Assembly (NCBI GenBank): GCA_963667675.1
Contig: OY763929.1
Coordinates: 642-64,641, forward strand
Reading direction: 5' to 3'
Length of the DNA: 64,000 nucleotides
Source: Dehalococcoidia bacterium
GTDB lineage: Bacteria > Chloroflexota > Dehalococcoidia > Lucifugimonadales > UBA3495
The translations under genes and the position numbers were made by a program. Positions 23,881-62,346 of the stretch are shown piece after piece (the stretch's first letter is position 1; each line of letters begins with the position of its first letter). The notes beneath the pieces are model-generated. The model was not told where the DNA came from. It did no database searches and saw nothing but the letters and a program-made list of their open reading frames with translations.

Positions 23881-23956
23881 GGAAATCGAAGGGGGAATAG
23901 ACGGGCGGGGGAGGTTGGGGCCTACCGCGGAGCATCGGTGGAACTTCTACGGGGGC

Positions 23957-25915: not shown

Positions 25916-26929
25916 CTACAGATTTTGCTGGGGGTCAAGGTAGTTGGAGTCCTTGTGGTATATCTGCAGGCGTTCCCGCTGGGTGTCGCATACGATCAGG
26001 CGGTTGACCCGCTGGTCGAAAGCGCAGGCCACCGGCATGACGAACACCCTCTGTTGCTCCTCCAGGTTGTACATCTGGCGGCGGCGTCTTTGAAAGTCCG
26101 GGTTGGCGTCAATGGTCATCTGGGCCCATTTGGACACGTCCGCCGCATCCCCGCGTAGATGGGTCAGGGGCTTACCCTCTGCATCGTAGATGACTACCCG
26201 CTGGTTCATCCAGTCCACAACGTACACGTCGCCTTCCCCGTCCACCGCCACGCCGCTGGGGTGCCTCAGCGAGCCCGGGCCGGACCCGCCGCGCCCTATA
26301 GTCTGCAGGTGCGCGCCGTCGGCGCTGAACTTTTGCACCCGGTGGTTGTTCCAGTCGGCCGCGTAGATGGCCCCGTTATTGTCGATGGTAATGCCCCACG
26401 GCGTATCCAGTTCGCCTTCCCCGCTGCCCTTCCGGCCAAACCCGCCCAGGTAGCGGCCGTCTTTGTCGAACTTCTGGATACGGCTGTCATTGCCGTTGAC
26501 TATTACCAGGTTGTCGTCCTGGTCGAACGCCATGCCCGACGGCCCGTTGAGCTGCCCTGGGCCCGGGCCCGCTTCTCCCCAGGTCCTCAACAATTCCCCG
26601 TCCTTGTTGAAGACGGTAATCCGGTTGAGCCACTCGTCGGAGGCGTAGACGTTCTCGTCACGGTCCAGGGCCACGGCGGTCAGAAAACGGAACTGTCCCG
26701 GGTCCTCTCCTCCGCCGCCGAATTCGCAGATGAAGTCTTGTTCCACCGTTAACTTGGTGATTCGGCAAATCTCGACGAAGTCGATACCCCTGTTGGCGAC
26801 GTATAGCACACCGTCCCTGGCTGGGGCAACACCTACGGGATGGTTGAAACCCGTGCCTGTCTCGGCATACCTTCCAATGTGATGACTATAGATCCAGGCG
26901 CGTCTTCCGACAACGGTTTCGGTTGCCAT
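25916..26929 (-). CDS. NHL-repeat beta-propeller protein, copy 2
   Basis: 337 aa, collinear with 14114-15127. RBS AAGGAGA. Confidence 0.8.
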   Translation of the reverse strand: MATETVVGRRAWIYSHHIGRYAETGTGFNHPVGVAPARDGVLYVANRGIDFVEICRITKLTVEQDFICEFGGGGEDPGQFRFLTAVALDRDENVYASDEWLNRITVFNKDGELLRTWGEAGPGPGQLNGPSGMAFDQDDNLVIVNGNDSRIQKFDKDGRYLGGFGRKGSGEGELDTPWGITIDNNGAIYAADWNNHRVQKFSADGAHLQTIGRGGSGPGSLRHPSGVAVDGEGDVYVVDWMNQRVVIYDAEGKPLTHLRGDAADVSKWAQMTIDANPDFQRRRRQMYNLEEQQRVFVMPVACAFDQRVNRLIVCDTQRERLQIYHKDSNYLDPQQNL

Positions 26930-27152
26930 CAGGCTTATCTCCTTCTAGAGCCCCTCTAGTCTTCTTTTTTGGGGCATAGTGTTTCCGGCGGTTACCCGCC
27001 GGGTGCCGTCGCTGAATTGATACCGCACTATGGGATTCAGGCTGAAGAGCGCAGTCCCTCTTGGAAGTACGACCGCCGCCGCCGGCCTGTCCCGCATGAG
27101 CCAAGCCGGTCTCACTGACGCAACAATCCAGCTAAGGCTCCGGATGAGGCGC

Positions 27153-28280
27153 TTAGAGGAACGAAAGTTTCTCGAAGCTCCCGTTGACGATGGGCTTGGC
27201 GTCAAGGCCAAACCAGTCCTCGGCAATGGTGCTGTAAGCCCCGCGGAAGTCGTAGTTGGGCACCAGGTCGCCCTGTTCCAGGTCTTCGGCCTTCCGGGAC
27301 GGGTACTCCCCGTAGAAGCCGCCCTTGACCGGTTCGCCGATTACGAAAGAGGCCCCGGCGGCCCCGTGGTCGGTGCCCGACCCGTTGTCCCGTACCCTCC
27401 GGCCGAACTCGGAGAACACGTACATGACAACGTTGTCCCCCCGGCCGTGCTCCCGCAGGTCTTCGAAAAACGCTCCCACTCCCTGTGACACGTCCTGCCA
27501 CAATTTGGGATGGGCGGCCATCTCGCCAGCGTGGTTGTCAAAGCTGCCGTGCTGGGTGTAGAAGATGCGCGTCCCCAGGTCGGCCAGGTAGACCTGGGCG
27601 ATGTCCCTCAGGTGGTTGGCGATACTCGTGTTGGGGTACTCCACGTTGGAGGAATACCTCTCCGGCGCCACCTTGACGATATCGGCGCCCGTTAGGGCGT
27701 CCATGCCGGTGCTGCGCAGGTAGTCGTTCACCGGTCCTGCGCCGATGGCGGGAGAGTACATGCGGGCAAACAGGTCCAAGGCCTTGGCCCGCTGTTCCTG
27801 GTCGCTTATCCCCGTCAGCAGACCGTAGGTCGACAGGTCGGAGATGGCGGCCACCGGCACGCCGGGCACCACCAGCGCCCGGGGCAGGCCGTGGCCGAAG
27901 TTGACCGCGGTCAGCACGTTGTCCTTGTTGGGGTCCAGCGCCTTGGCCACCCTGCCGGCCCACCCTTCTACCCCTATTATGTCCGGCTCGCAGGTATGCC
28001 AGATGTCCATCGAGCGGAAGTGGGACCGCGGCGAATTTGCGTATCCTATGCCGTGGATGACCGCCACGTTCCCCTGGTCGTACAGTTCCTTGATTGGACC
28101 CATGTCGGGCATGAAGGCCATCTCGTCATCCACCTGGAGGAGGTCCTCCAGCGGATACCTGACGACTGGCCGGTTGTCCACGTACAGTGGGTCGTTGTAT
28201 GGGATGACCGTGTTGAAATAGTCGTTGCCGCCGCTTAGCTGCAGGACCACTATCACCGGGTCTTTCGTTGTTGAGGTCAT
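27153..28280 (-). CDS. DUF1501 domain protein (sulfatase/alkaline-phosphatase-like fold), no signal peptide
   Basis: VLQLSGGNDYFNTVIPY...GIGYANSPRSHFRSMDIWHT...SEFGRRVRDNGSGTDHGAAG. RBS AAGGAGGA. An in-frame TAA at 28320-28322 excludes an N-terminal extension. Confidence 0.85.
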   Translation of the reverse strand: MTSTTKDPVIVVLQLSGGNDYFNTVIPYNDPLYVDNRPVVRYPLEDLLQVDDEMAFMPDMGPIKELYDQGNVAVIHGIGYANSPRSHFRSMDIWHTCEPDIIGVEGWAGRVAKALDPNKDNVLTAVNFGHGLPRALVVPGVPVAAISDLSTYGLLTGISDQEQRAKALDLFARMYSPAIGAGPVNDYLRSTGMDALTGADIVKVAPERYSSNVEYPNTSIANHLRDIAQVYLADLGTRIFYTQHGSFDNHAGEMAAHPKLWQDVSQGVGAFFEDLREHGRGDNVVMYVFSEFGRRVRDNGSGTDHGAAGASFVIGEPVKGGFYGEYPSRKAEDLEQGDLVPNYDFRGAYSTIAEDWFGLDAKPIVNGSFEKLSFL

Positions 28281-28330
28281 GCTCGGTCCTCCTTTGACTC
28301 TCGATTCCCGTACTCCGGATTACCGGAAAT

Positions 28331-29740
28331 CTAACCGAACTGGTACTCGGTTGTGGCGCCGATCATCGCCAGTGTCTCTCCAATTCGAGTCCCGGCGGCC
28401 GCTTCGTCGCTCCAGTCCAGATCACCTCCGCCCCTCATGTACTCCAGCAATTGCTCGCTGGTCTCGTCTGCAAGCTCCAGGTAGCCCATGTGGTCCAGGG
28501 CAGCCGCCAGCAACTGCTCCGGCGTTGTTACCCCGGCGGCCTTCATGTCGGCGATGATGCTCTTCACCCCCGGCAGGCTGGTGTCGGCCATGTGGTCGGC
28601 AACAAAGTTGACCCTGGCCAGCAGCGAGCCGCTGTTGATCCACTCCTTGCCGGTGTACCACCCCTCGACGCTCGGCGGGTCCAGAACGGCCTGGCCCATG
28701 TAGTCGGGTTGCTCGCCCAAAGTCCTGATTCCAGGCGTGGGTTGGTCCCACTTGCCCACCAGCCGCAGAGTCCCGGCTATCACCTCCGCCGGGCTCTTGA
28801 TCTTCGAGAACCGGGCGTCCTTGAAGAACTGCGAGGTGAATATGGTGCGGAGCACGGCTTTCAGGTCGTAACCCGAGTCTTCGAACGACTTCATCATTTC
28901 CGCCAGGGCTTCCTCGTCCCTGGCCGGCTCGATGGTCCACGCCGGCACCTGCACCTCGTCAGCCACGAAGAAGTTGTACAGGTGGCGGCAGATGAACCGG
29001 GACGTCGCCGGCTGCTTGACCACTATGTCGATGATATCCTCGCCATTGAAGTTGCCCGTATGCCCCAGGAAGGTCTTCTCGGTTTCGTCGTGGTCTTCTT
29101 CCCGGTAATCGAAGTACCACGGGAACCGGCCATAGGGCAGACGCGGCATCTTGGGGGTCACTGTCCACCCGGTGAACGCCCGGGAGGCCTCCCGCACGTC
29201 CGTTTCGGTGTAGTTGTTGACCCCCATCGAAAACAATTCCAGCAGCTCCCTGCCCCAGTTCTCGTTGACCGCGTCCCGGTGATTCTCATTGTTGTCCAGC
29301 CAGAAAATCATGGCGGGGTTTTTCGACAGTTGCACCAGCAACTCGCGATAGTTGCCCATCCCGTATTTCCGGAACATGTCGATTTGGTCCAGAACCAGGT
29401 TGCAGTTGTCCACTTTCGCGTTGCCCGTGGCAAAGACCTGGTGCCAGAACAGCCCCATCTTATCCAACAATGGGTTACGGCTGTTGCGCAAGCTATACAT
29501 GTACCGGGCCTGCCCCATTGTCGGCGTGCCGCCCGGCAGGAAAGTGCCGGGGTGGTAGCGGTAAAGCAGCGCATCCACGCTCGCCTTGCCGGCGGGGTCC
29601 TCGGGCGGTGGGTTCAGAAGCTCCTCCACCGTCGCCTCATATCCCTTGGCCACCCTCTCTTCCAACTCTTCCCGGGCCGCGCCGAACCCCGCCCGGCGCA
29701 TCAGGTGGGCCATTAGGGCCATCTCGTCCTTTTTAGCCAT
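28331..29740 (-). CDS. DUF1800 domain protein, copy 2
   Basis: 469 aa starting MAKKDEMALMAHLMRRAGFGA. Same hallmarks as copy 1. RBS GGGAGA. Confidence 0.75.
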   Translation of the reverse strand: MAKKDEMALMAHLMRRAGFGAAREELEERVAKGYEATVEELLNPPPEDPAGKASVDALLYRYHPGTFLPGGTPTMGQARYMYSLRNSRNPLLDKMGLFWHQVFATGNAKVDNCNLVLDQIDMFRKYGMGNYRELLVQLSKNPAMIFWLDNNENHRDAVNENWGRELLELFSMGVNNYTETDVREASRAFTGWTVTPKMPRLPYGRFPWYFDYREEDHDETEKTFLGHTGNFNGEDIIDIVVKQPATSRFICRHLYNFFVADEVQVPAWTIEPARDEEALAEMMKSFEDSGYDLKAVLRTIFTSQFFKDARFSKIKSPAEVIAGTLRLVGKWDQPTPGIRTLGEQPDYMGQAVLDPPSVEGWYTGKEWINSGSLLARVNFVADHMADTSLPGVKSIIADMKAAGVTTPEQLLAAALDHMGYLELADETSEQLLEYMRGGGDLDWSDEAAAGTRIGETLAMIGATTEYQFG

Positions 29741-34705: not shown

Positions 34706-35950
34706 CTAGGCTTCCTCGGTCACCTCGGCTTCCACCGGCTTGTTGGTGGCCGGATCCACCTCGAAGGGGCTGTAAAGCTCCAACTCCTTGGCCATCTCGT
34801 GTATGGCCGGGATGACCTCTTCACCTTTCAGGCGGAGACTGCGCATGGTGTCCTCGTGGGTCATGGAGCCGTCGCCGTCCCATAGGAAGATGCTGCCAGG
34901 CCTCAGGTACTCCAGCACGTGGCGAATTTTGGGTATTACCGTCTTGGGCGTGCCCGAGATGATGCTGTAGCTGGTGGTCTGGTCTTCGTAGGCGACACCC
35001 TCGCCCGCCCGGCCCGCGACTAACGCGGAACGAGTGGGGAGCAGCCCCCTGCGTTGGGTGTGGCCGGGAAGACTCATGATGGCATTGTTGTTGGTGCCCT
35101 CGTTGCCGGCCAGGAATGGATTGCTGGGGCCCTGCACGTACTTCCTGCCTACCTCGTCGGCCAACTCCTCAGTTTCGTCCACGTGCACCTTGAACACGTA
35201 AGCCGTGTTCTGGGTCCCGGCCTCGTACCCCAGCTCCGCGGCGGTGTCTTTGTACAACTGGAAGCACTGCTTGGTCGGCTCCAGAGCGGTGGCCAGCATG
35301 ACGTATGGGTAGCGGTGCTCGGCAGCCCAGGTCACCGTCCTGGGGCTGGCGATGCCGGGAATCCAGACCGGGGGGTGAGGCTTCTGGTAGGGCATGGCCC
35401 AGGGGTTCACGTAGCGGTACTGGTAGTGCTTGCCCTCCCAGCGGAACGGGCCCGGCGTGGTCCATGCCTTGATGATAAAGTCGTGGGCTTCCTGGAACCG
35501 CTCCCAGTTATGGGCCGGAGGGGCGTTGTGGGCGATGCTCTCACGGCCGGTGCCCCGTACAAAACCCGACACCAGGCGGCCGCGGGAAATCATGTCGATT
35601 ATCGACAGTTGCTCCACCAGCCACAATGGGTCTTCCCAGATGGGCAGGATGTTGCCCAGCAGGACGATTTTGGCTTTCTTGGACTGGCGGGCATATATCG
35701 CCGCCTCCAGGTTCATCACGCTGCCCATGCAGAAGGGGGTGCTGTGGTGCTCGTTGATGTTGATGGCGTCGAACCCGACCTCCTCGGCGTACAGGTACTC
35801 GTCTATGTAGCGGTTGTAGAGCTCGGCCCCCAGCTTGGAGTCGTAACTCTCGTTGCTCAGAGTCAGGTCCTTGATGGGCAGTCCGGTAGCGCCGAAATAG
35901 CCCGACGCCGGGTCCTGATAGGGGCGCTCGGTGACGTGACCGATGAACAT
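34706..35950 (-). CDS. LLM-class flavin-dependent oxidoreductase, tandem copy A
   Basis: 414 aa starting MFIGHVTERPYQDP...ININEHHSTPFCMG. RBS GAGGAGAAG. Confidence 0.85.
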   Translation of the reverse strand: MFIGHVTERPYQDPASGYFGATGLPIKDLTLSNESYDSKLGAELYNRYIDEYLYAEEVGFDAININEHHSTPFCMGSVMNLEAAIYARQSKKAKIVLLGNILPIWEDPLWLVEQLSIIDMISRGRLVSGFVRGTGRESIAHNAPPAHNWERFQEAHDFIIKAWTTPGPFRWEGKHYQYRYVNPWAMPYQKPHPPVWIPGIASPRTVTWAAEHRYPYVMLATALEPTKQCFQLYKDTAAELGYEAGTQNTAYVFKVHVDETEELADEVGRKYVQGPSNPFLAGNEGTNNNAIMSLPGHTQRRGLLPTRSALVAGRAGEGVAYEDQTTSYSIISGTPKTVIPKIRHVLEYLRPGSIFLWDGDGSMTHEDTMRSLRLKGEEVIPAIHEMAKELELYSPFEVDPATNKPVEAEVTEEA

Positions 35951-36021
35951 CTACTTCTCCTCGAGGGGCAGGGATCGGCGCAGGCAAACCCTACCCGTGT
36001 CAGCGTCTAGGTGACTTTGCT

Positions 36022-36050
36022 ATGGTAGCAATACGACAGACTGGGGTCAA
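36022..36050 (-). promoter_or_regulatory. Promoter of LLM copy A
   Basis: Reverse strand reads TTGACC-N17-TACCAT. The -10 box is embedded in the palindrome GCTACCATAGC (36019-36029). Confidence 0.5.
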
Positions 36051-36081
36051 TCGCAGGCGAGGCCGATGGGTGAAGCAGACT

Positions 36082-37338
36082 TTATGCCTGCCCCTCGGCG
36101 ACGGGCTCGGGCTCTATCCGCTTGTTGGTGGCCGGGTCCACCTCGAAGGGGCTGTAAAGCTCCATTTCCTTGGCCATCTCGTGTATGGCTGGCAGCACTT
36201 CCTCGCCCTTCAAGCGTAAGCTGCGCATGGTGTCCTCGTGGGTCATGGCCCCGTCGCCGTCCCATAGGAAGATGCTGCCGGGCCGCAGGTATTCCAGCAC
36301 GTGGCGAATCTTGGGTATGACCGTCTTGGGCGTGCCCGAGATGATGCTGTAGTTTTCAATCTGCTCCTCGTAGGGACGGGCGCCCGACCCTCCGCCCCGG
36401 GCCATGGTCTGCACCTTGGAGGTGGGGAGCCGCGCGGTGCGGGACCGCAGCCCCGGCAGGTTGACGATGGCAACGTTACTGGAGCCCTCGTTGCCGGCCA
36501 GGAAGGGGTTGCTGGGACCCTGCACGAACTTCCGGCCCACCTCCTCGGCCAGCTCCTCCGTCTCGTCCACGTGCACCTTGAACACGTAGGCCGTGTTCTG
36601 TGTCCCGGCCTCGTACCCCAGCTCCGCAGCGGTGTCCCGGTACAGTTGGAAGCTCTGCTTGGTGGGCTCCATTTCGGTGGCCAGCATGACGTATGGGTAG
36701 CGGTGCTCGGCAGCCCACTGCACCGTCCTGACGCTGGCGATACCGGGTATCCAGATGGGCGGGTGGGGCTTCTGGTAGGGCATGGCCCAGGGGTTCACGT
36801 AGCGGTACTGGTAGTGCTTGCCTTCCCAGCGGAAGGGGCCAGGGGTTGTCCAGGCCTTGATGATGAAGTCGTGGGCTTCCTGGAACCGTTCCCAGTTGTT
36901 GGCCGGCGGCGCGTTGTGGGAGATTTGCTCTCGCCCGCCGCCCCGCACAAAGCCCGACACCAGGCGGCCCCGGGAGATCATGTCGATTATAGATAGCTGC
37001 TCCACCAGCCACAGGGGGTCGTCCCAGATTGGCAGGATGTTGCCCAGCAGGACTATCTTGGCCTTCTTGGACTGGCGGGCGTAGATGGCGGCTTCCAGGT
37101 TCATGACGCCGCCCATGCAGAAGGGCGTGCTGTGGTGCTCGTTGATGTTAATCGCGTCGAAGCCGACCTCCTCGGCGTACAGGTACTCGTCGATATACCG
37201 GTTGTACAGCTCGGCGCCCAGCTTGGAGTTGTAAATCTCGTTACTGAGCGTCAGGTCCTTGATGGGGAGTCCGGCAGCGCCGAAATACCCCGACGTGGGG
37301 TCCTGATAGGGGCGCTCGGTGACGTGACCTATGAACAT
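36082..37338 (-). CDS. LLM-class flavin-dependent oxidoreductase, tandem copy B
   Basis: 418 aa, near-identical to copies A and C outside one internal segment. Confidence 0.85.
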   Translation of the reverse strand: MFIGHVTERPYQDPTSGYFGAAGLPIKDLTLSNEIYNSKLGAELYNRYIDEYLYAEEVGFDAININEHHSTPFCMGGVMNLEAAIYARQSKKAKIVLLGNILPIWDDPLWLVEQLSIIDMISRGRLVSGFVRGGGREQISHNAPPANNWERFQEAHDFIIKAWTTPGPFRWEGKHYQYRYVNPWAMPYQKPHPPIWIPGIASVRTVQWAAEHRYPYVMLATEMEPTKQSFQLYRDTAAELGYEAGTQNTAYVFKVHVDETEELAEEVGRKFVQGPSNPFLAGNEGSSNVAIVNLPGLRSRTARLPTSKVQTMARGGGSGARPYEEQIENYSIISGTPKTVIPKIRHVLEYLRPGSIFLWDGDGAMTHEDTMRSLRLKGEEVLPAIHEMAKEMELYSPFEVDPATNKRIEPEPVAEGQA

Positions 37339-37409
37339 GGGCTTCTCCTTCCATAGCCGGGGGAACCAGGGGCAATTGCTGCACGCGTCTGAGTCTTTGG
37401 ATCTCTGCT

Positions 37410-37438
37410 ATGGTAGCGATACACGGGCCTGTGGTCAA
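37410..37438 (-). promoter_or_regulatory. Promoter of LLM copy B
   Basis: Reverse strand reads TTGACC-N17-TACCAT. Palindrome GCTACCATAGC at 37407-37417. Confidence 0.5.
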
Positions 37439-37556
37439 ACGCAGGCGAGGGCGCTGCATCACGCCGTTCCGGCTAGGAGGCGGGGATCCAGGGGCTGGGC
37501 CTTGGGCTTGGTCCCTGTTTAATGAAGTAGCGGAAAATGGCGGAGGGTCTGGGCCC

Positions 37557-37778
37557 TTAGCACTCAGAGCAGACTATCCGGCAATTCTCGGCGGTCTCGG
37601 GACCGTCCTCCTGCACCGGGCGAACGTCCCATCCCCACTGGCCGGACTTGCCCCTGCTGGGAAAGCCGAGCATGGCATTGCACCGGTCACCGCCATGGGC
37701 GCATTCCGCCGCCTGGCATTCGCACTTGCTTCCCGCCCGTATCCAGGCTTCCTGTACTACGTCGCCGGGGAATTCCAT
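37557..37778 (-). CDS. Small Cys-rich protein, degenerate HNH-like zinc-finger fold
   Basis: 73 aa with RBS GAGGTGG 5 nt upstream. The pattern W.RAGSKCECQAAECAHGGDRC...WDVRPV...AENCRIVCSEC resembles small HNH nucleases, but the His-His pair is replaced by D-V. The protein ends right after CxxC. Confidence 0.45.
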   Translation of the reverse strand: MEFPGDVVQEAWIRAGSKCECQAAECAHGGDRCNAMLGFPSRGKSGQWGWDVRPVQEDGPETAENCRIVCSEC

Positions 37779-37862
37779 TGTTCCACCTCGAAACGGAGAA
37801 TCATCCGCAGCGGGGACGCAACGATTATCTCGACAAGGGATTCCCGATGGGTGAAGTCTCTT

Positions 37863-39128
37863 TTATGCTTGTTCTTTGGCGGGTTCGGCGGCAGGCTCGG
37901 GCTCTACCCGCTTGTTGGTGGCCGGGTCTACCTCGAAGGGGCTGTAAAGCTCCAATTCCTTGGCCATCTCGTGTATGGCCGGGAGCACTTCCTCGCCCTT
38001 CAACCGCAGGCTGCGCATGGTGTCCTCATGGCTCATGGAGCCGTCGCCGTCCCACAAGAAAATGCTGCCGGGCCGCAGGTATTCCAGCACGTGGCGAATC
38101 TTGGGTATCACTGTCTTGGGCGTTCCCGAGATGATGCTGTACTTTTCGATCTGTTCTTCGTAGGGACGCTGGCCCGATCCCCCGCCGCGGGCAACGGTCT
38201 GCACATTGCGAGTGGGGAGCAGGGCGCTTCGGGACCGCAATCCCGGCAGCATAGTGGTGGCCAGGTTGTTGGTCCCCTCGTTGCCGGCCAGGAAGGGGTT
38301 GCTGGGGCCCTGCACGAACTTCCGGCCCACCTCGTCGGCCAACTCTTCCGTCTCGTCTACGTGCACCTTGAACACGTAGGCCGTGTTCTGAGTCCCGGCC
38401 TCGTACCCCAACTCCGCGGCAGTGTCCCGGTATAGCTGGTAGGACTGCTTGGTGGGCTCCAACTCGGTGGCCAGCATGACGTAGGGGTAGCGGTGCTCGG
38501 CAGCCCACTGCACCGTCCTGACGCTGGCGATGCCGGGAATCCAGACCGGGGGGTGGGGTTTCTGGTAGGGCATGGCCCAGGGATTCACGTAGCGGTACTG
38601 GTAATGCTTGCCCTCCCAGCGGAAGGGGCCGGGGGTGGTCCACGCCTTGATGATGAAGTCGTGGGCCTCCTCGAACCGCTCCCAGTTATTCGCTGGAGGC
38701 GCGTTGTGGGAGATGCTCTCACGCCCTCCTCCACGCACGAAGCCCGACACCAGGCGGCCCCGGGAAATCATGTCGATTATGGACAACTGCTCAACCAGCC
38801 ACAGGGGGTCGTCCCAAATCGGCAGGATGTTGCCCAGCAGGACTATCTTGGCATTCTTGGACTGGCGGGCATATATGGCCGCCTCCAGGTTCATCACCCC
38901 GCCCATGCAGAAGGGCGTGCTGTGGTGCTCGTTGATGTTGATGGCGTCGAAGCCCACTTCCTCAGCGTAAAGGTACTCGTCGATGTAGCGGTTGTAGAGT
39001 TCGGCGCCCAGCTTGGAGTCGTATATCTCGTTGCTGAGAGTCAGGTCTTTGATGGGAAGTCCGGCAGCGCCAAAATACCCCGATGCGGGGTCCTGATAGG
39101 GGCGCTCGGTGACGTGACCGATGAACAT
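37863..39128 (-). CDS. LLM-class flavin-dependent oxidoreductase, tandem copy C
   Basis: 421 aa with the same N-terminus. RBS GGAGAAG. Confidence 0.85.
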   Translation of the reverse strand: MFIGHVTERPYQDPASGYFGAAGLPIKDLTLSNEIYDSKLGAELYNRYIDEYLYAEEVGFDAININEHHSTPFCMGGVMNLEAAIYARQSKNAKIVLLGNILPIWDDPLWLVEQLSIIDMISRGRLVSGFVRGGGRESISHNAPPANNWERFEEAHDFIIKAWTTPGPFRWEGKHYQYRYVNPWAMPYQKPHPPVWIPGIASVRTVQWAAEHRYPYVMLATELEPTKQSYQLYRDTAAELGYEAGTQNTAYVFKVHVDETEELADEVGRKFVQGPSNPFLAGNEGTNNLATTMLPGLRSRSALLPTRNVQTVARGGGSGQRPYEEQIEKYSIISGTPKTVIPKIRHVLEYLRPGSIFLWDGDGSMSHEDTMRSLRLKGEEVLPAIHEMAKELELYSPFEVDPATNKRVEPEPAAEPAKEQA

Positions 39129-51941: not shown

Positions 51942-52059
51942 GATGAACGGCCTCCAGATTTTTCACCCGGTTTCGGCGTGAGATTCCCGGTAAACGCTGC
52001 TCCTAATGGATGCATGAGTTTCGTTTGCTTGTAGGGCTTGGCCCAGTATACGACTTGGG

Positions 52060-52422
52060 CTAGGGACGCCCTCTGTTGAACATGAAACGGCGCAGCAGTC
52101 GCATCAATAGTGAACCATTCTTGAGAGCCCTGGGCGCAGGTAAAGGGTGGACGTACTCGCTAATCCGGTATATTCCCGGCTGGGATTGGTTGGCCCTTCT
52201 ATGTACTGCAACAATGAAGCCAACAGACTCAGACTGAATATGACGCCCGTCTAGACTTGTGAGCCACATACCTATCCGGCTTCTCCGTCCACTGTCTTCG
52301 GTGCTGCGGTCGTCAATCAACTCGGCCAGTTCTTCTACTTGGGCACTCTCCAAGTCCTGAATCCTGAATGGCCGGTTTTCAAACCAACTATAGAGAGCCT
52401 CTATCGCTAGTCCTTGCTTCAT
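52060..52422 (-). CDS. Hypothetical protein (lower-GC islet)
   Basis: 120-aa ORF with RBS GGAGA 4 nt upstream. I recognise no motif. Confidence 0.45.
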   Translation of the reverse strand: MKQGLAIEALYSWFENRPFRIQDLESAQVEELAELIDDRSTEDSGRRSRIGMWLTSLDGRHIQSESVGFIVAVHRRANQSQPGIYRISEYVHPLPAPRALKNGSLLMRLLRRFMFNRGRP

Positions 52423-52446
52423 GCGTTCTCCATGCCGGACTACGCC

Positions 52447-52740
52447 CTAATCAACCTCATAACCGATGAACCAGTCCCCTTCCACCTCCTGAAGGTGAAA
52501 GGCGATTCCTTCATCGTCGCCTCGAGACCATATAACATCCCCATGGCACCTTATCAGGCTATGGGTGCGCCTGACTTCTCTAACGTCGTAAATCTTGAGG
52601 AGTTCACTGAATACCGCGTTGTCGTTGTACATGTCAACGATCTCCGGCACTAGGTCATTACACTCAATCTTGTGAAACTCTTTGCCGCTGAAAGCGGAAC
52701 CACCGCAGGCCGGGGCCAAGGCTAACAGTGCCAGCACCAC
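52447..52740 (-). CDS. Hypothetical small lipoprotein (lower-GC islet)
   Basis: GTG start. MVLALLALAPACGG resembles a lipobox, but there is no clear RBS. Confidence 0.35.
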   Translation of the reverse strand: MVLALLALAPACGGSAFSGKEFHKIECNDLVPEIVDMYNDNAVFSELLKIYDVREVRRTHSLIRCHGDVIWSRGDDEGIAFHLQEVEGDWFIGYEVD

Positions 52741-52818
52741 AAGCCAAAGTAGCCGCTTCCACGGCCTTGCTCCTAAAGTCGGTGGTCTGCTCCAGAAGTC
52801 CTTGCAACGGCCACCATT

Positions 52819-53199
52819 CTAATAGCCAGTCAACTCTGAGACGACGGCAACTACTGCATCATCGTCGAAAACAAGGGCTTTAAACTTCCAGGTTCTCCCA
52901 GGAGCCAAGTCACTTGTGTAGTCCGATGTTGAGCCAACTTGCGCGTCGCTGGCATCCAATAGGACAAAGCTAATGGAGACAGAGCTAAATGTCCGGTCGC
53001 TTTGGTTCTTGACTGTTCCAACTATATAGTTGCTTCCGTACTCTGATGTTTCCCAACCCCAACGCCCTAGATATAGATCTACCTCGCTGTCACGCTCGCT
53101 CCCGCCCCCTACGTTGCTTGTGGCTGTGCAGCCAATAAACACTATAGATGAGACAATGACTAACGCCAGTATCAAAATGCCGCCCTTTGATATCGTCAT
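52819..53199 (-). CDS. FxLYD-like domain lipoprotein (lower-GC islet)
   Basis: Start at MTISKGGILILALVIVSSIVFIGC (RBS ACGGAG). ...GTVKNQSDRTFSSVSISFVLLDASD...APGRTWKFKA. Confidence 0.5.
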   Translation of the reverse strand: MTISKGGILILALVIVSSIVFIGCTATSNVGGGSERDSEVDLYLGRWGWETSEYGSNYIVGTVKNQSDRTFSSVSISFVLLDASDAQVGSTSDYTSDLAPGRTWKFKALVFDDDAVVAVVSELTGY

Positions 53200-53269
53200 A
53201 TCAACTCCGTGAGCCTTGCCCAAAAGTCAACTAAAGCGATTCCGCCAACTTTTTCCGGTACAGCTTTGG

Positions 53270-53569
53270 TTAACCTTCTCCCGATCGGTCACCTTGAAAC
53301 AGTGCCTTGGCCAATTGTTCGGCGTGAATCCTTACGACCTCCCATGACTCGCACAGTGCTTGGGCTTCCTCACAAGAGTCAAAGAGGGGCAGATTATCCG
53401 AGTCTGGTTCTGGCCATCCATAAGCTACCCACTTCATCGCGGGAACATCAGGATTGACGAATACCAGCCCATACCACACTCGGTAAACCTCGCCAGACGG
53501 CCCGTTCCCTTCCAAAACGACCTTGGCAAGTGATTCCTCAGCTTCTATTTCTTCCCACTCAATTTCCAT
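53270..53569 (-). CDS. Hypothetical acidic protein (lower-GC islet)
   Basis: 99-aa ORF with a weak RBS. Confidence 0.4.
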   Translation of the reverse strand: MEIEWEEIEAEESLAKVVLEGNGPSGEVYRVWYGLVFVNPDVPAMKWVAYGWPEPDSDNLPLFDSCEEAQALCESWEVVRIHAEQLAKALFQGDRSGEG

Positions 53570-53765
53570 TCTTTACCAAAATCCCTGTACTAGCCGTCGA
53601 TTACCGGGGCCAAGTGCTTTGACACTTGGCTCAGGGCCATTCAAGGACTTTTGACCCTGCCCCTCAGTTCTAGGTATGCTTGACTAGGATTAGGACAGCC
53701 GTTCCCACGGCAAACAGAACCGATGCCTGATTATATCCTAAAACGCACTAAAGAGCCGCGGGCGC

Positions 53766-56195: not shown

Positions 56196-57491
56196 ATGGT
56201 TGATGTCAGGCCCTTCCGCGGCTGGCGCTACGACCTCGACTTGGTGGGCGACCCCGCCACCGCGCTGTGCCCTCCCTACGACATGATTACGCCGGAGGCG
56301 CAGGCGTCGCTGCGGCAGTCGAATCCCTACAACGTGGTACACCTGGAGGCCGGCGAGAGCCTGGACTGGGACAACCCGGCCCAGGAACAGTACTCCAGCG
56401 CCGCCGGCCTCTTCGCGGATTGGACGAGCAAAGGCGTGCTCAGGCGGGACGCCCAGCCTTCCTACTACCTGTCCAAGCAGGTGTTTATGCACGAGGGCAG
56501 GGAGTGGACGCGCCTGGGATTGACCGCCTGCGTCGGCTTGGAGCCCTACGACGGCGGGCAGGTGCTGCCCCACGAGTACACCGAAGCCCCGGCGGTGCGC
56601 GACCGCGTGACCCTGATGAAGGCCTGCAGCGCCAACATCAGCCCCATCATGGGCCTCTACCGCGACGCTGACGGCGCCCTTTGCCCCGTGTTCCGGCAGG
56701 TCATGTCCGGGCCTGCGGACTTGCACGCCGACGACGGCAAAGAACTGCGGGCAAAGCTGTGGCAAATCTCCGACCCAGCCCTTTCGGGCCAAATAACCCG
56801 ATTCTTCCAGGACAAGCCCGTCTTCCTGGCCGACGGCCATCACCGCTACCACGCGGCCCTGCAGTTCCAGCAGGAACAACTGGATGCCGGCGAGATCGCC
56901 CCCGGCCACGCCGGCAATTTCGTGATGATGACGTTGATTGCCTTCGAGGACCCCGGCCTGCTGGTGCTCCCGTACCACCGGATGCTGGGCGGCCTGTCCC
57001 CCGAACAATTCTCGGAGGTGCAACGGCGGCTGGGCGAAATATTCCAGGCCGCGCCGATCCGAGGGGATACGCCCCTGGACGCGGAGTCGGCGGCCAGGGA
57101 AGCGGCCGGCGGTGACGGTGGCGGTCACGCCATGGTGATGGTGGGACCCGACGGTGAATCCCCCTCCCTGCTGACCCTGCGGCCGGAAGTAAACTGGCGC
57201 GACTGGGGCTCGCTGGCGGTCGCCGAAGCGTGGATTCTCGAGGAGAAGGTGCTGCGTCCCGTCCTTGGCGACGCGACCCTGGCCCACCTGGGCTTTATCC
57301 ACAGCCAACAAGAGGCCGTCGATGCGGTGTCCTCGGGCGGCAGCCAGCTTGCCTTCCTGCTCCGGCCGTTCCCGATGGGGCAGTTCGAGGCGCTGGTCAC
57401 CCAGCGGCAGCGGCTCCCCCGCAAGTCAACCTTCTTCTACCCCAAACTCCCCACCGGCCTGGTCATCAACCAGTTGGACGGGACTCTATAG
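56196..57491 (+). CDS. DUF1015 domain protein
   Basis: MVDVRPFRGWRYD...CPPYDMITPE is the family-typical N-terminus. RBS AGGAG. Confidence 0.75.
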   Translation: MVDVRPFRGWRYDLDLVGDPATALCPPYDMITPEAQASLRQSNPYNVVHLEAGESLDWDNPAQEQYSSAAGLFADWTSKGVLRRDAQPSYYLSKQVFMHEGREWTRLGLTACVGLEPYDGGQVLPHEYTEAPAVRDRVTLMKACSANISPIMGLYRDADGALCPVFRQVMSGPADLHADDGKELRAKLWQISDPALSGQITRFFQDKPVFLADGHHRYHAALQFQQEQLDAGEIAPGHAGNFVMMTLIAFEDPGLLVLPYHRMLGGLSPEQFSEVQRRLGEIFQAAPIRGDTPLDAESAAREAAGGDGGGHAMVMVGPDGESPSLLTLRPEVNWRDWGSLAVAEAWILEEKVLRPVLGDATLAHLGFIHSQQEAVDAVSSGGSQLAFLLRPFPMGQFEALVTQRQRLPRKSTFFYPKLPTGLVINQLDGTL

Positions 57492-57505
57492 TTCCGGCCA
57501 ACCAT
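57351..57505 (+). repeat. Direct repeat copy A (3' end of the DUF1015 gene plus 14 bp)
   Basis: 146 of 155 positions identical to 59101-59255. Confidence 0.95.
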
Positions 57506-57518
57506 CCCGGACTCTGTC

Positions 57519-57650
57519 ATGAACTACGACTACGTTGTTCCAGAGGATTGGGCGAAGTGGGCCCCATCGCCGCTCAACGAGCCTGACTGCTCGCCCCATC
57601 CCTTCGACGTGATGGCGGTCTACGCTCTGTACCAGACTGTTTCCCAATGA
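57519..57650 (+). CDS. 43-aa ORF translationally coupled to the PD40 gene (below the ORF-track size cutoff)
   Basis: MNYDYVVPEDWAKWAPSPLNEPDCSPHPFDVMAVYALYQTVSQ. Its TGA overlaps the PD40 ATG as ATGA (57647-57650). The tail is conserved upstream of the second PD40 gene, with mostly synonymous changes. Confidence 0.4.
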   Translation: MNYDYVVPEDWAKWAPSPLNEPDCSPHPFDVMAVYALYQTVSQ

Positions 57651-59059
57651 AGCCAGCCGATGGGGGTAACCACCGACTGAGAATTATACGGTCGCCACTT
57701 GTCATCGGTCCGATTCTGGTAGTGACTATATTTTCTGTGGCGTACATTATTTTTGTTGGCACCGTAGGGATAGGCTGGGGTGAACGCGAAGGTAACCTCA
57801 GCCCCAACGAAGACTATCACAGGTGGAGCGATACACACTGGTATGCTCCGCAGTCGTTGGAACCCCAGTGGATACCTGCTGGGAGCCGCATTGTTTTCAA
57901 AAAGCCATACGACTCCGAAGACCGATGGCCCGACGACCTCTACAGCATTACTTCAGACGGCTCCAGCCTACGTAAGGTCGCTGATGATGCGCGCTGGTTA
58001 AACATCTCTCCTGATGGCTCAAGCATCGCCTACAGCACGACGCGAGAACATCAAAAGCTGCCCTACTATATAGAGACCTCCAAGCCGGACGGCTCAGGTC
58101 GGCGGCCCATTACCGAGCAAGCATTGAAGGACTACATTCCTGTTGAAGAAGCACTCCTCAATGACGTTTCTCCTTCATGGTCGCCAGACGGCGAGCGCAT
58201 CGCTTTCGCAAGAATCTCGCACTCCAGTCGTGAGGAAGGTCGGGGTATCTACATCATGAACGCGGACGGCACCAACCAGCATCGGATATTCCGTTTTGAA
58301 GGCCGGGGCCTCCACGCTACGTACGCGGTTAGCTCCAAGCAACCTCAGATATTCCGTTCTGGAGAGACTCCTTCAGATGATAGATTACATGACTATGTGT
58401 GGGGTCCAGTGTGGTCGCCCGATGGTGGGAAGTTGGCTTTTGTACTTTGGGAATATGAAGCAGGCGGCGGCGAGTCCGTCAACCCGTACGCTCTTTACGA
58501 GTCTGTCAATCCGTATGTTCTTTACGTCATAAACGCTGACGGCTCGGGCTTGGTGCGGGCTTTCGAAGCGACCCAGGACAAACCCATAACTCCAGTAGAC
58601 AGGTCGATAGACGAAATACCAGGACCTCCCATATGGTCACCGGACGGCCGGAAGTTGGCGTTCACCCCTTTTTATTATGAGGCCTCATTTGCGGAAGAAG
58701 AAATAACAGTGCTCCACGGAGTTGTTGTGAACACGATAAACGCTGACGGCTCCGGGTTGCAGGCCGCGGCCGAATTCGACGGATCATTTGTAAACAACTT
58801 GTCCTGGTCGCCAAACGGAAAGAACATCTTATTCACCACTTTGACTAGGACAGTGTACATAGGTGACGGTGACGGGTCAGGTGTTTATAGCCGAGTGTCA
58901 GACGGGTCATATGCAGCTTGGTCTCCCGACGGTTCCAAGATAGCGGTAATTGACTTTGTTTCCGACGAATATCTCTTTACGGTAAACGCAGACGGCTCAG
59001 GCCGGCAGGTGTTGGTGAGGAGAGAAGAAGACGGAGACCTGAAGGCTGCCAACAGATGA
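57647..59059 (+). CDS. PD40/TolB-like WD40 beta-propeller protein with an N-terminal membrane anchor
   Basis: Repeated WSPDG(x)(K/R)IAF blades. TM segment IGPILVVTIFSVAYIIFVGTVGI. Confidence 0.8.
   Translation: MKPADGGNHRLRIIRSPLVIGPILVVTIFSVAYIIFVGTVGIGWGEREGNLSPNEDYHRWSDTHWYAPQSLEPQWIPAGSRIVFKKPYDSEDRWPDDLYSITSDGSSLRKVADDARWLNISPDGSSIAYSTTREHQKLPYYIETSKPDGSGRRPITEQALKDYIPVEEALLNDVSPSWSPDGERIAFARISHSSREEGRGIYIMNADGTNQHRIFRFEGRGLHATYAVSSKQPQIFRSGETPSDDRLHDYVWGPVWSPDGGKLAFVLWEYEAGGGESVNPYALYESVNPYVLYVINADGSGLVRAFEATQDKPITPVDRSIDEIPGPPIWSPDGRKLAFTPFYYEASFAEEEITVLHGVVVNTINADGSGLQAAAEFDGSFVNNLSWSPNGKNILFTTLTRTVYIGDGDGSGVYSRVSDGSYAAWSPDGSKIAVIDFVSDEYLFTVNADGSGRQVLVRREEDGDLKAANR
58472..58525 (+). 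repeat. In-frame 27-bp tandem duplication inside the PD40 gene
   Basis: GAGTCCGTCAACCCGTACGCTCTTTAC followed by GAGTCTGTCAATCCGTATGTTCTTTAC, encoding ESVNPYALY and ESVNPYVLY. Confidence 0.9.
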
Positions 59060-59241
59060 CAGCCATGCTCTCAAGAGAAGCAAAGCTATTCTTCGGCTTG
59101 GCCTTCCTGCTCAGGCCGTCCCCCACGGGGCAGTTCGAGGCGCTAGTCACCCAGCGGCAGCGGCTACCACGCAAGTCAACTTTCTTCTACCCCAAACTCC
59201 CCACCGGCCTGGTCATCAACCAGTTGGACGGGACTCTATAG
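59056..59241 (+). pseudogene. Orphan copy of the DUF1015 C-terminus (61-aa ORF); either a gene fragment or a coupled mini-ORF
   Basis: The last 46 of its 61 residues match the C-terminus of 56196-57491 at 44 of 46 positions. Its ATG overlaps the PD40 stop as ATGA (59056-59059). Confidence 0.6.
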
Positions 59242-59255
59242 TTCCAGCCAACCAT
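59101..59255 (+). repeat. Direct repeat copy B
   Basis: See copy A. The offset between copies is 1750 bp. Confidence 0.95.
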
Positions 59256-59362
59256 TCAAAACGCCGGGCATTGAAGGCTAGAGGATCAAAAATCTGAGTT
59301 GCTCTCATCTTCCCTTTGACATCATGGCTATTTACGCCCTATACCAGTCGGTGGACTAAATT

Positions 59363-61132
59363 GTGATTTCGACGAGGAGAGTATCAATCACGCTTTGCCT
59401 GGCGTTGGCTTTGGTTTTAGGAGTCTCATGCCAGGATGATGGAGCAGGCGGCGTGACCGAGGATGCACCCCCATCTCCAGGCCCTACGGCAACATCGGCG
59501 ATTTCTCCGACTCCCGGAGTGGTCCGCGGTATTGTTTCTGATCCCGACGACCCCTGCGGCATCAGCCTAGGGGGATATTCGGGCGAATACCACGAGGGGT
59601 TTTTCCACTGGAGCGGCGACGGATCCTTTTTGGTGTTCGACGTCGACGACGAAATCTGGGCGCTGGATATGTCAAATTCCCGGGTGCGAAAGATAGCCGA
59701 CGTAGACCCAGACTATAGGGAGGAGGGCGACGAGTATTATAGATATACCGATTATAGATTTCTCTACGGGTTCTACGCCGACGTATCGCCGGACGGATTA
59801 CGGATAGTGTATTCCACCTGCGAGTACGAGGTTTATCCGCCGTCCGTCATCGGCTGGTCACATCGTGGCGAGGGGAATATACAGGTTTATGAAATCGGTA
59901 CGGTCAACATCGACGGGGGCGACAAGGAGCGGTCGACTGAGTCGGTGCAGATGGACAACTACCCCGTGTGGTCCCCGGATGGAACGCAGGTCGCCTTCAT
60001 TTCGGGTATCAGGGGAAGTGCGTATGACGAAGGCCACTACGAACCGGAGTACTCGGCGCTGCACATCAAGTGGGTAGAAGACGGTGAATTAAGAGCGCAC
60101 CGGATTGCCAAAGTGCTTCGAGGCACTACCGGGGTGGCCCTGTATCCCCCTGTGTGGTCGCCCGATGGTCGGTACCTAGCGTACCTCTTCAATCGTGACA
60201 AGTTAAAGCCGTTTGCCCGTGATCTCTACATTGTAAAGGCGGACGGTTCCGAAGAAACCGGATTAGAGGCAGGTAAAACTGTTACGGCGCCCGCCGACTG
60301 GTCCCCGGACGGTCGGGAATTGGCCTTCGCCTCCATTGACGAAGAGTCGCCAATAATCTATGCAGTTATGCCCGATGGCACAGGCTTGCGCACGGTTTGG
60401 CGCAGCGGATACGACGGCCCGTATGAGCCCATCTCCCAGGTGTCCTGGTCTCCCGACGGCTCGGAACTCCTGTTCGTGTCCGGCAGCGTCTACGTCGTGG
60501 GGTCCGACGGCAGCAGCCTGCGGCTGATTGAGTATGGCGCCAGGGCCGCTTGGTCTCCGGACGGGTCAAGGGTTGCCGTCTACCAACCGGGTTATCAGAT
60601 ACTGATCGCGGCCCGTGACGGCACGGACGTGCGCCCGCTGGCGATGGCAGATGCAAACGGCATTTTCCATGCGGTGAAGACGGCCCCGTCTGTTGGCCCG
60701 GCGGCGTGCTCGGCGGGCGTCGTCCCGGATCCCGATACAAACCCCGGCCTGGTACGAGACTGCGAAGTCCTGCTGAACATCCGGGACTCTCTTGACACAG
60801 GCGAGCAGTTGAACTGGAGCGGAAGCGTTCCCATGGGAGATTGGGACGGGGTCGTCCTGGCTGGCTCGCCTCCTCGAGTCTATGCGCTGGTTCTTCTAGA
60901 CCGTGACTTAACGGGCATTCTGCCGCCGGAACTCGGCGAACTAGCCGAGCTTCGGACGCTCAACCTAAGCGGGAACTACCTTACAGGAAGCATCCCCCAG
61001 GAACTGAGCAATCTATCAAGTCTTAACACAATGTCACTATCCGGCAATCAGCTTACGGGCTGCATTCCAATAGACTTGAGGTATATAGAGAGCACCGACC
61101 TTGCTGCACTCGGCCTCCCAAATTGCGAGTAG
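59363..61132 (+). CDS. PD40 beta-propeller lipoprotein with C-terminal plant-type leucine-rich repeats
   Basis: GTG start. Signal with lipobox-like LVLGVSC. WSPDG blades. The C-terminus carries an LRR N-cap (DCEVLLNIRDSL...NWS...W.GV) and LTGxIPxEL repeats. Confidence 0.8.
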   Translation: MISTRRVSITLCLALALVLGVSCQDDGAGGVTEDAPPSPGPTATSAISPTPGVVRGIVSDPDDPCGISLGGYSGEYHEGFFHWSGDGSFLVFDVDDEIWALDMSNSRVRKIADVDPDYREEGDEYYRYTDYRFLYGFYADVSPDGLRIVYSTCEYEVYPPSVIGWSHRGEGNIQVYEIGTVNIDGGDKERSTESVQMDNYPVWSPDGTQVAFISGIRGSAYDEGHYEPEYSALHIKWVEDGELRAHRIAKVLRGTTGVALYPPVWSPDGRYLAYLFNRDKLKPFARDLYIVKADGSEETGLEAGKTVTAPADWSPDGRELAFASIDEESPIIYAVMPDGTGLRTVWRSGYDGPYEPISQVSWSPDGSELLFVSGSVYVVGSDGSSLRLIEYGARAAWSPDGSRVAVYQPGYQILIAARDGTDVRPLAMADANGIFHAVKTAPSVGPAACSAGVVPDPDTNPGLVRDCEVLLNIRDSLDTGEQLNWSGSVPMGDWDGVVLAGSPPRVYALVLLDRDLTGILPPELGELAELRTLNLSGNYLTGSIPQELSNLSSLNTMSLSGNQLTGCIPIDLRYIESTDLAALGLPNCE

Positions 61133-61233
61133 GCGGTGAGCGGAAAGTGACCGTGATTAACGAAACGACATCGAGAAACCGGATAGCCGCTTGCTTGGCT
61201 GGACTGGGCATCGCCTCGCTTTGACTTGATTCC

Positions 61234-62346
61234 CTAGCCGGCGCTGAACCCCACCTGGGGCAAGACGGCCTTCAGCGTATCCAGTACTTCCTGGATGTCG
61301 TCTTCCGACACCTGCCCCATGTGGCCTATTCGGAAGATCTTGCCGCTGAGCTTGCCCTGTCCTCCCGCCAGCACCACGCTGTGCTCGGTGCGGGCCAGGG
61401 ACACCAGCTTGCCGCCGTCTATTCCCTCCGGCACCTTCACCGCGGTCACGGCGTTGGACGCCCACCGCTCGTCCTGGGCCAGCAGTTCCAGCCCCAAGTC
61501 CCTGACTCCGTCACGGGTCATCTGGCCGATGCGGACGTGCCTTTCGAACACGTTTTCCATGCCCTCGGCCAGCAGCGTATCCAAAGCCAGGGACAGGCCG
61601 TAGAGGGCCGCAACGTTGGGCGTGAACGGCGTCTCGCCCCGTTCTAGGTAGCTTTGGGCCGCCTGCAAATCGAAGTAGTACCTGGGCATGGTGGCCGGCT
61701 CCTGGGCTGCGTGCGCGGCCTCGCTCATGCTGACGAAGGCCAGCCCCGGCGGCACCATGAACCCCTTCTGCGACGCAGTGCTCACCACGTCGCAGCGCCA
61801 GCCGTCGGTCGGCAGGGGCACGCATCCCAGGCCGCTGACCGCGTCCACCAGCAGCAGCTTGTCGAACTCCCTCTTGACCACTCCGGCGATGGCTTCCACG
61901 GGGTGGGTGATACCGGTGGAGGTCTCGTTGTGGGTGACCAGCACCGCCTTGATTTCCGGGTCGTTCGCCAATGCTTTTCGGATTTCCTCCGGGTCCAGCG
62001 GCTCTCCCCACTCGAATGTCAGCCGCTGCACTTGGGATCCGTAGGTCTCGGCAATCTCGGTGTAGCGGTCTCCAAATGACCCGGCGCTGGCGGCCAGCAC
62101 CTTGTCGCCGGGCGACAGGGTGTTGACCACCGACGCCTCCAGCGCCCCGGTGCCCGAGGCGGTGAGGACGTACACGTCGCCCTGGGTCATGAACACCTGC
62201 TTCAGTTGCTCCGTCGTCCGAGTGATGATCTCCCGGAACTCCGGGCCCCGGTGGTTGATCATCGGCTGGGACATTGCCTCCACGATGTCGTCGGGCACCG
62301 GAGTAGGTCCGGGCACCCTCAGGTTCTGCCTGGGTATTTTCACCAC
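61234..62346 (-). CDS. Class V aminotransferase (alanine-glyoxylate / serine-pyruvate aminotransferase family)
   Basis: 370 aa with ...PGPTPVPD...MINHRGPEF... GTG start after GAGGTGAAGGA. Confidence 0.85.
   Translation of the reverse strand: MVKIPRQNLRVPGPTPVPDDIVEAMSQPMINHRGPEFREIITRTTEQLKQVFMTQGDVYVLTASGTGALEASVVNTLSPGDKVLAASAGSFGDRYTEIAETYGSQVQRLTFEWGEPLDPEEIRKALANDPEIKAVLVTHNETSTGITHPVEAIAGVVKREFDKLLLVDAVSGLGCVPLPTDGWRCDVVSTASQKGFMVPPGLAFVSMSEAAHAAQEPATMPRYYFDLQAAQSYLERGETPFTPNVAALYGLSLALDTLLAEGMENVFERHVRIGQMTRDGVRDLGLELLAQDERWASNAVTAVKVPEGIDGGKLVSLARTEHSVVLAGGQGKLSGKIFRIGHMGQVSEDDIQEVLDTLKAVLPQVGFSAG

Follow-up and report, generated by a model that had tools for sequence, protein, structure and literature searches.

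Genomic islands and integrons integrate at the 3' ends of genes or tRNA genes by site-specific recombination. A second route by which DNA enters a genome, insertion with long target duplication, has been described by Nobusato et al. 2000 and by Furuta, Abe & Kobayashi 2010 (PMC2853133), where the flanking repeats measure 46-423 bp, are 93-100% identical (384 of 412 positions in one example) and enclose no mobility genes. Homology-facilitated illegitimate recombination (HFIR) in turn builds arrays of displaced 'orphan' modules among the effector-immunity genes of the type VI secretion system of Vibrio cholerae (PMC5361080), a study that also cites the orphan C-terminal modules of Rhs and contact-dependent inhibition (CDI) systems. 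Here we describe a locus in an uncultured Dehalococcoidia bacterium (contig OY763929.1; the 64-kb stretch analysed is called the window), in which the 3' end of a DUF1015 gene is repeated downstream of a gene encoding a PD40 propeller protein, and we compare it with these three systems. We consider, with a probability of about 0.75, that this repeat of 158-161 nt is a recombination scar lying in a horizontally acquired, lineage-specific islet and made by no dedicated machinery.

An earlier note on this DNA had reported direct repeats at 57351-57505 and 59101-59255, with 146 of 155 positions identical (94%) and an offset of 1750 bp, and alignment confirmed both the pair and these values. Base by base, the full homology runs slightly beyond the limits first described, from 57348 to 57508 (copy A) and from 59098 to 59258 (copy B), both on the plus strand, with 10-11 differences over 158 nt and a longest perfectly identical run of 64 nt (57432-57495). 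A pattern built on a 38-nt core of the repeat matched exactly twice in the window, against no match in 100 shuffles. Copy A is the genuine end of the DUF1015 gene, as had been claimed, and contains codons 385-431 (the last 47) of an intact plus-strand gene at 56196-57491 (Pfam PF06245, E=6e-71; full-length profile match over 56196-57488, 239 bits against a gathering cut-off of 25.8 bits), its stop codon, some 8 nt belonging to the ancestral spacer (TTCCGGCC) and, beyond it, roughly 10 nt from the start of a protease-gene remnant (CCAACCATC). Copy B consists of an orphan DUF1015 3' end, the spacer and the same first ~10 nt of the protease remnant, and lies inside an ORF (open reading frame) of 61 codons, which we call orf61. 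There is no third copy in the window and none distal to the second PD40 gene. The 155-bp element was also sought elsewhere, as had been suggested, and the comparison loci that we fetched contain none; a search for further copies of either the repeat or the tail motif of the protease remnant described below, covering the window and all fetched loci, returned only the two window copies plus remnants in three loci, L006, L012 and L013.

To place the repeat in its genomic context, we compared the locus with six related Dehalococcoidia genomes whose DUF1015 proteins are 84-94% identical to that of the window, namely three metagenome-assembled genomes from a genome collection, found with the DUF1015 protein (L001-L003; 84-91% identity), and three further loci obtained via a protein database (L007-L009; 90-94% identity). 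In all six, a class-V aminotransferase gene in convergent orientation lies 22-157 bp beyond the DUF1015 gene; its counterpart in the window is the core gene of the right flank (61234-62346, minus strand; Pfam PF00266, E=4e-25), and the locus is otherwise collinear with that of the window at 82-91% nucleotide identity. These six empty sites indicate that the window carries a lineage-specific insert. By blastn, synteny breaks at 57499 and at 61233-61241, delimiting a foreign-looking islet of 3.7 kb (57500-61233, plus strand) that is absent from the six relatives. The spacer of copy A is homologous to that of the relatives up to 57499, and 57348-57499 and 59098-59249 both align to one and the same target of 149-151 nt in L001-L003. 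The expectation that the locus would vary among relatives was thus borne out by the six empty sites, but none of the six carries an alternative cargo. An exact-sequence look-up returned no strain-level copies of the window DUF1015 or of the first PD40 gene, a scan of JGI metagenomes with DUF1015 found only a 33%-identical locus and nothing close, and the DUF1015 genome scan yielded no relatives closer than the three species-level ones. A second lineage-specific insert, unrelated to the islet, lies at 52018-53722 between argD and argB (51.6% G+C); it is absent from L001-L003, L007 and L009 and has no flanking duplication, and none of its four small ORFs (120, 97, 134 and 99 aa, all on the minus strand) matches a Pfam family.

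The islet contains two PD40 genes, both on the plus strand. PD40-1 (57647-59059; Pfam PD40, E=6e-22, 77 bits against a cut-off of 20.9 bits) encodes a TolB-like beta-propeller protein with an N-terminal hydrophobic anchor, and PD40-2 (59363-61132; PF07676, E=1e-18, 67 bits) a PD40 propeller with C-terminal LRR (leucine-rich repeat) domains (LRR_1/LRR_8); the two proteins are only 28% identical and differ in domain architecture. Their G+C contents are 52.9% and 58.2% respectively, compared with 65-67% in the flanking genes, so that the low value first noticed for short samples of PD40-1 holds for the whole gene, and at third codon positions (GC3) they have 57% and 66%, compared with 85-87% for DUF1015, argJ and the aminotransferase. 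Both proteins form singleton clusters: the best non-self homologue of PD40-1 is 50% identical, PD40-2 belongs to a large and highly diversified PD40-LRR family at 40-51% identity, and a look-up among 5.8 billion protein clusters gave no relative of either above 51%. PD40-2 looks like the older resident on sequence features, since it has the higher GC3 and is preceded by the more decayed remnant. Its annotated start apparently lies 30 codons downstream (559 aa, P0241); starting at GTG 59363 would add a lipoprotein-like signal peptide (..LALALVLGVSC), with a Shine-Dalgarno-like motif (GGTGGA) upstream, and because of these two features the longer form seems more likely.

The boundary between host and foreign DNA is the same in both copies of the repeat. 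After the DUF1015 stop each reads TAG-TTCCRGCC-AACCATY, of which the middle block is the ancestral spacer (the equivalent in L002 is CTCCGGCC) and the last, CCAACCAT, encodes the P-T-I that opens the protease remnant. Such an identical junction indicates that it arose once, and that the repeat was made after the first insertion. The remnant that follows copy A, s1 (57498-57650, plus strand), comprises about 51 codons from the 3' end of a gene for an HExxH protease-like protein and ends in a stop codon that shares an ATGA with the start of PD40-1. It is the conserved short coding tail of the earlier note, and the 43-aa ORF within it begins at an internal Met (ATG 57519). Read from 57498 (PTIPDSVMNYDYVVPEDW to YALYQTVSQ and the stop), s1 has 79% amino acid identity with the last 50 residues of an intact 233-aa protein of L013 (4353-5054), whose gene precedes a PD40-1 homologue (P0005) and whose stop also overlaps the PD40 start. 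We therefore rejected s1 as a conserved micro-gene and regard it as the truncated end of a larger gene. Compared with metalloproteases of the metzincin or matrixin type, whose zinc motif is HExxHxxGxxH, the L013 protein contains HEAGHALGLSK, with no third His in register, and a Met-turn-like STMNY, and it scores 18.3 bits (E=2e-3) against Peptidase_M10, below the cut-off of 24 bits.

The corresponding remnant after copy B, s2 (59259-59359, plus strand), is decayed, with an in-frame TAG and approximately 42 nt missing relative to s1, although its last ~20 codons (ending CSHLPFDIMAIYALYQSVD and the stop) are readable. The tails of s1 and s2 have 60-67% nucleotide identity; the L012 and L013 remnants resemble s1 more closely than s2 does. 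Remnants with the same last ~20 codons also sit upstream of PD40 homologues in L006 and L012. The very uneven divergence reported for this locus was therefore found again, at 94% identity for the repeat, 60-67% for the tails and 28% for the PD40 proteins. As a separate observation, the terminal ~60 nt of the protease-like gene (..HPFD[VIL][MI]A[VI]YA[LM]YQxVxx and the stop) have been kept in every truncated remnant (57590-57650 and 59296-59359 in the window, 5690-5764 in L006, 5915-5968 in L012 and 4990-5054 in L013), even where the part upstream is frameshifted or deleted, and the stop overlaps or abuts the PD40 start. This retained tail, a short upstream ORF reading MA[VI]YALYQ.., may serve the PD40 gene as an obligatory leader for translational coupling.

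We then considered orf61 (59056-59241), in which copy B lies and whose ATG does overlap the PD40-1 stop (ATGA 59056-59059), as had been described. Homology to DUF1015 starts only at 59098, and the preceding stretch, g3' (59056-59097, plus strand), consists of the first 14 codons of a third ORF of the PD40 module, cut off at an illegitimate junction with copy B (59097/59098). orf61 is thus a chimera, in which 14 codons of the third ORF are joined in frame to the last 47 codons of DUF1015, and we regard it as an accidental fusion. The ATGA overlap had been read as the coupling of a genuine gene; a third-ORF start that overlaps the PD40 stop (ATGA or GTGA) recurs in L005, L006 and L013, however, indicating that in the window the overlap was inherited from the module.

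The differences between the copies were polarised using the six DUF1015 orthologues as reference. The eight coding differences comprise six synonymous and two non-synonymous changes (F to S and M to T), in agreement with the earlier count. Both replacements are unique to copy B and fall at residues that are invariant in all seven functional sequences (the window DUF1015 and its six orthologues); four of the synonymous changes are likewise unique to B, and two (codons 6 and 9) are unassignable to either branch. Under neutrality, a number of synonymous changes this large would have a probability of 0.007-0.047 when all eight differences are counted unpolarised and of 0.05-0.17 for the six that are specific to B, the value varying with the mutation model. 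Six of the nine changes in B are from GC to AT, which is the expectation for unconstrained DNA. Each copy has the other as its closest relative (11 differences in 158), and the derived states AAA and CTC are common to both; from all six orthologues B is more distant (26-31 differences) than A (17-28). The view that both copies evolved under purifying selection is therefore not upheld: for B such selection is suggestive at most, this copy is clearly less constrained than a real gene end, and we regard it as a decaying orphan.

A second bracketed module was found in L006 (GCA_034421215.1), one of the loci (L005, L006, L010, L011, L012 and L013) that we used for comparison of the PD40 modules. 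In L006 a remnant, a PD40 homologue (P0004) and a third ORF are bracketed by a direct repeat of 76 nt that is 87% identical between copies 2324 bp apart (5278-5353 and 7602-7677), with weaker similarity about 75 nt further upstream. The right copy is the ribosome-binding region plus the first 14 codons of a neighbouring MR_MLE gene, the left copy is an orphan, and the coding differences between them are four synonymous and one non-synonymous. No flanking repeats were found around the homologous modules in L012 and L013, and L005 and L010 showed nothing relevant. The occurrence of the bracketed form at two of four loci is intriguing, but a module-specific mechanism is not established.

As to the order and mechanism of events, we infer two steps. 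In the first, a 5'-truncated fragment of a surface-protein cluster, with a protease-like gene, a PD40 propeller gene and further ORFs, would have entered the ~20-nt spacer between DUF1015 and the aminotransferase. In the second, a further rearrangement would have left two different PD40 genes in series, separated by a copy of the last 141 nt of DUF1015 with its stop, the spacer and some 10 nt from the start of the protease remnant; this step would need one homology-guided join and one illegitimate join, at 59097/59098. This could have happened by insertion of a PD40-1 fragment with long target duplication, by a tandem duplication followed by internal deletion, or by HFIR, the incoming DNA being that of a close sister lineage with the same junction but other cargo. 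By any of these routes DUF1015 would remain intact and copy B would be left as a decaying orphan. Within the scar interpretation, we would give an event in place roughly, and slightly less than, an even chance.

Several observations weigh against this history. The repeats bracket only 1.6 kb (57509-59097) of the 3.7-kb islet, leaving PD40-2 (59259-61233) outside, so that at least two events are needed; no intermediate genome with one PD40 gene only was found; and the structure of the scar is seen in assembled sequence alone. The 6:2 skew of the A-B differences towards synonymous changes is not what would be expected of an orphan decaying in place, although the P value rises from 0.007-0.047 to 0.05-0.17 once the changes are polarised. 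Finally, as the modules in L012 and L013 have no repeats, the parallel in L006 may be a coincidence.

The skew is more readily accommodated by a variant of the scar interpretation, in which the second copy was captured from a diverged sister lineage. Here two lineages would have carried the same DUF1015-remnant junction with different PD40 cargo, one homologous and one illegitimate crossover would have combined them, and A and B would be the 3' ends of two once-functional orthologues. The predominance of synonymous changes, both in the window and in the L006 pair (4:1), is in keeping with this, and purifying selection on both copies would lead to roughly the contrast seen between the repeat (6% divergence) and the neutral remnants (33-40%). 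In addition, the DUF1015 gene is a mosaic that matches L007 at 98% identity over 57026-57313 and L008 at 99% over 57300-57421, with a background divergence of 8-12% outside these blocks; this shows that inter-lineage recombination does happen at this locus. We also examined whether the switch in affinity coincides with the left end of the repeat and rejected this, since the switch lies at about 57300-57314, 35-50 nt upstream of 57348, and is therefore not the same breakpoint. However, capture requires an unsampled sister lineage with the same junction, when all six sampled relatives are empty. On the polarised B branch the ratio falls to four synonymous to two non-synonymous, and the changes in B are biased from GC to AT and include the replacements at invariant residues. 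Moreover, with no relative of either PD40 protein above 51% identity, there is no donor in sight. We therefore regard capture of a second allele as unlikely, though a serious contender. Of the earlier proposal of capture by way of the DUF1015 3' end, the involvement of recombination at that end is upheld and a homology-assisted join is a plausible route, but the reading of copy B as a foreign allele is not supported, its nearest relative being A, with which it shares both derived states and the junction.

We find it very unlikely that orf61 or copy B has been kept by selection, for example as a translated micro-protein of 61 aa that mimics the DUF1015 C-terminus. The frame is open, its start is coupled through ATGA and the differences are biased towards synonymous changes, as such a product would lead one to expect. 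Yet the two replacements strike F and M residues that are the same in all seven functional DUF1015 sequences, an in-frame fusion has a one-in-three chance of arising by accident, the ATGA came with the PD40 module, and orf61 has neither a Pfam match nor a homologous orphan in the other fetched loci.

No more credible is the possibility that the whole unit, from the DUF1015 end through the tail to the PD40 gene, was simply duplicated in tandem long ago and diverged in place, a history that had been disfavoured already and that we reject. Both units do have the same order of parts and the same junction. Nevertheless, as the tails diverge by 33-40%, neutral decay at equal age would predict approximately 30 differences in the repeat where only 10-11 of 158 positions differ, s1 is nearer to remnants in other genomes than to s2, and the PD40 proteins have little identity and different architectures.

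A site-specific system, with the 155-nt element as the attachment site at the DUF1015 3' end and the PD40 units as cassettes integrated by a recombinase, is already largely refuted, and we give it almost no weight. As in islands and integrons, direct repeats of the 3' end of the target gene lie on either side of inserted, compositionally foreign DNA, and the second PD40 module, in L006, has flanking repeats too. However, of the approximately 40 ORFs scanned with Pfam, which cover the islet, the other insert and 30 large ORFs (metabolic genes) from the rest of the window, none encodes an integrase, a transposase or a resolvase, and the flanks of the islet are syntenic core genes. There are no tRNA genes, and the only Rfam match between 51.5 and 62.5 kb is below threshold and put down to chance. 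A distal third repeat after PD40-2 is missing, the repeat in L006 derives from another gene and has another sequence, so that there is no common att core, and the modules in L012 and L013 have no repeats. The repeat itself is much longer than in site-specific systems, its ends are arbitrary, and B extends on its right side into the remnant that belongs to the cargo. On these data, together with the six empty relatives, the cassette slot or attachment site proposed in the earlier note is not supported, nor is its use by a recombinase encoded among the scanned ORFs. Equally negligible is an assembly artefact joining two strain haplotypes: strain mixtures are common, and the sequence does come from a metagenome-assembled genome, but the 59097/59098 junction joins non-overlapping sequences, which assemblers do not invent, the contig is 2.6 Mb long, and the 9-11 positions at which the copies differ argue against a collapsed repeat.

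Of the described systems, insertion with long target duplication resembles this locus in many respects. Genomes with an empty site show similarity on both sides (all six relatives); the insert is shorter than 20 kb (3.7 kb here), compositionally foreign and devoid of a mobility gene; the repeats exceed 30 bp and each aligns to a single target; a gene whose 3' end is overlapped by the repeat can stay intact; and the identity of the repeat lies within the published 93-100%. Unlike the published cases, the cargo is a PD40 propeller gene fragment rather than a restriction-modification system, and the repeats bracket only 57509-59097, the second foreign gene, PD40-2, lying outside. Furthermore, the repeat here holds approximately 10 nt of an earlier insert and hence records a nested or secondary event.

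Arrays built by HFIR share with this locus a conserved upstream gene end that serves as the homology anchor, the addition of a new module with the older one shifted downstream, and a fragment of the anchor gene before the displaced module (copy B before s2 and PD40-2). In contrast, the gene acting as anchor in the window is metabolic, unrelated and still whole, the six relatives have no alternative modules at the locus, the nearest sequence to B is A, and there is no toxin-immunity logic that would explain retention.

Because two independent genomes (the window and L006) show the bracketed form, one might propose that the protease remnant and PD40 gene, with or without the third ORF, constitute a family of recombinase-independent mobile modules in Dehalococcoidia, landing beside core genes with long target duplications (76-160 nt) and keeping the ~60-nt protease tail as a recombination handle or translational-coupling leader. 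We consider this doubtful.

The wider family to which the cargo belongs offers further context. In L011 (3370-16646) three PD40-LRR paralogues lie ~2.1 kb apart with 81-97% nucleotide identity, and further related copies ~1.7 kb apart adjoin an IS110-family transposase; such tandem arrays indicate that the PD40-LRR family expands locally. In L013 (1220-12376) the intact module forms part of a cluster with cadherin/fn3, HExxH protease-like, PD40, LRR-fn3 and several cadherin-domain proteins; the LRR-fn3 protein has an N-terminus similar to the third ORF in L005. Eukaryotic-like repeat proteins with PD40, LRR, cadherin and fn3 domains are enriched in sponge-associated bacteria (PMC9531527). The cargo in the window is likewise PD40 and PD40-LRR, with homologues that cluster with LRR, fn3 and cadherin genes (L013) or form tandem arrays (L011), and we take a possible link to sponge symbiosis only as a lead.

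With regard to expression, no promoter or terminator was predicted between DUF1015 and PD40-2, and the plus-strand ORFs over this interval all abut or overlap. Read-through is therefore the simplest expectation, and the acquired genes are probably co-transcribed from the DUF1015 promoter. DUF1015 itself has been proposed as a serine kinase that replaces SerB ('SerBK'), often encoded near serA and serC (bioRxiv 10.1101/2024.10.14.618325). That proposal and the facing aminotransferase fit the strong conservation of DUF1015 and a selective need to keep it intact. The two genes are convergent in seven of seven genomes. Since SerC belongs to the class-V aminotransferases, they may form a conserved serine-metabolism pair.

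Elsewhere in the window, a tandem array of a 39-nt unit (at least nine registers, core 81-92% identical) lies at 23466-23933 between a CoA-transferase and an alpha/beta-hydrolase gene, and three dispersed ORFs of 427-462 aa with no Pfam match (2361-3644, 8575-9963 and 12775-14064) share 300-nt blocks that are 86-88% identical. In addition, three luciferase-like monooxygenase genes stand in tandem at 34706-39128, and a gene group for an NHL-propeller protein and DUF1800 (with DUF1501) is duplicated (14114-16673 and 25916-29740). Expansion of paralogues is typical of SAR202-like Dehalococcoidia.

The locus reveals no new mechanism or class of element, and is rather a new example of a known rearrangement scar. 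It also corrects three annotation traps, in that orf61 is a fragment, that the 43-aa 'small gene' is another and that ATGA coupling can be inherited rather than adaptive. Since the two repeats share an identical core of 64 nt, ordinary homologous recombination between them could delete or amplify the 1.75-kb PD40-1 unit. More broadly, insertion with long target duplication, which has been little studied, is here extended beyond restriction-modification genes and naturally competent Proteobacteria. The genes entered a spacer of only ~20 nt between two convergent core genes, and the long duplication kept the core gene intact. The locus thus provides a clean, datable case in which an uncultured, streamlined member of the Dehalococcoidia gains genes for surface 'eukaryotic-like' repeat proteins without the machinery of a mobile element.

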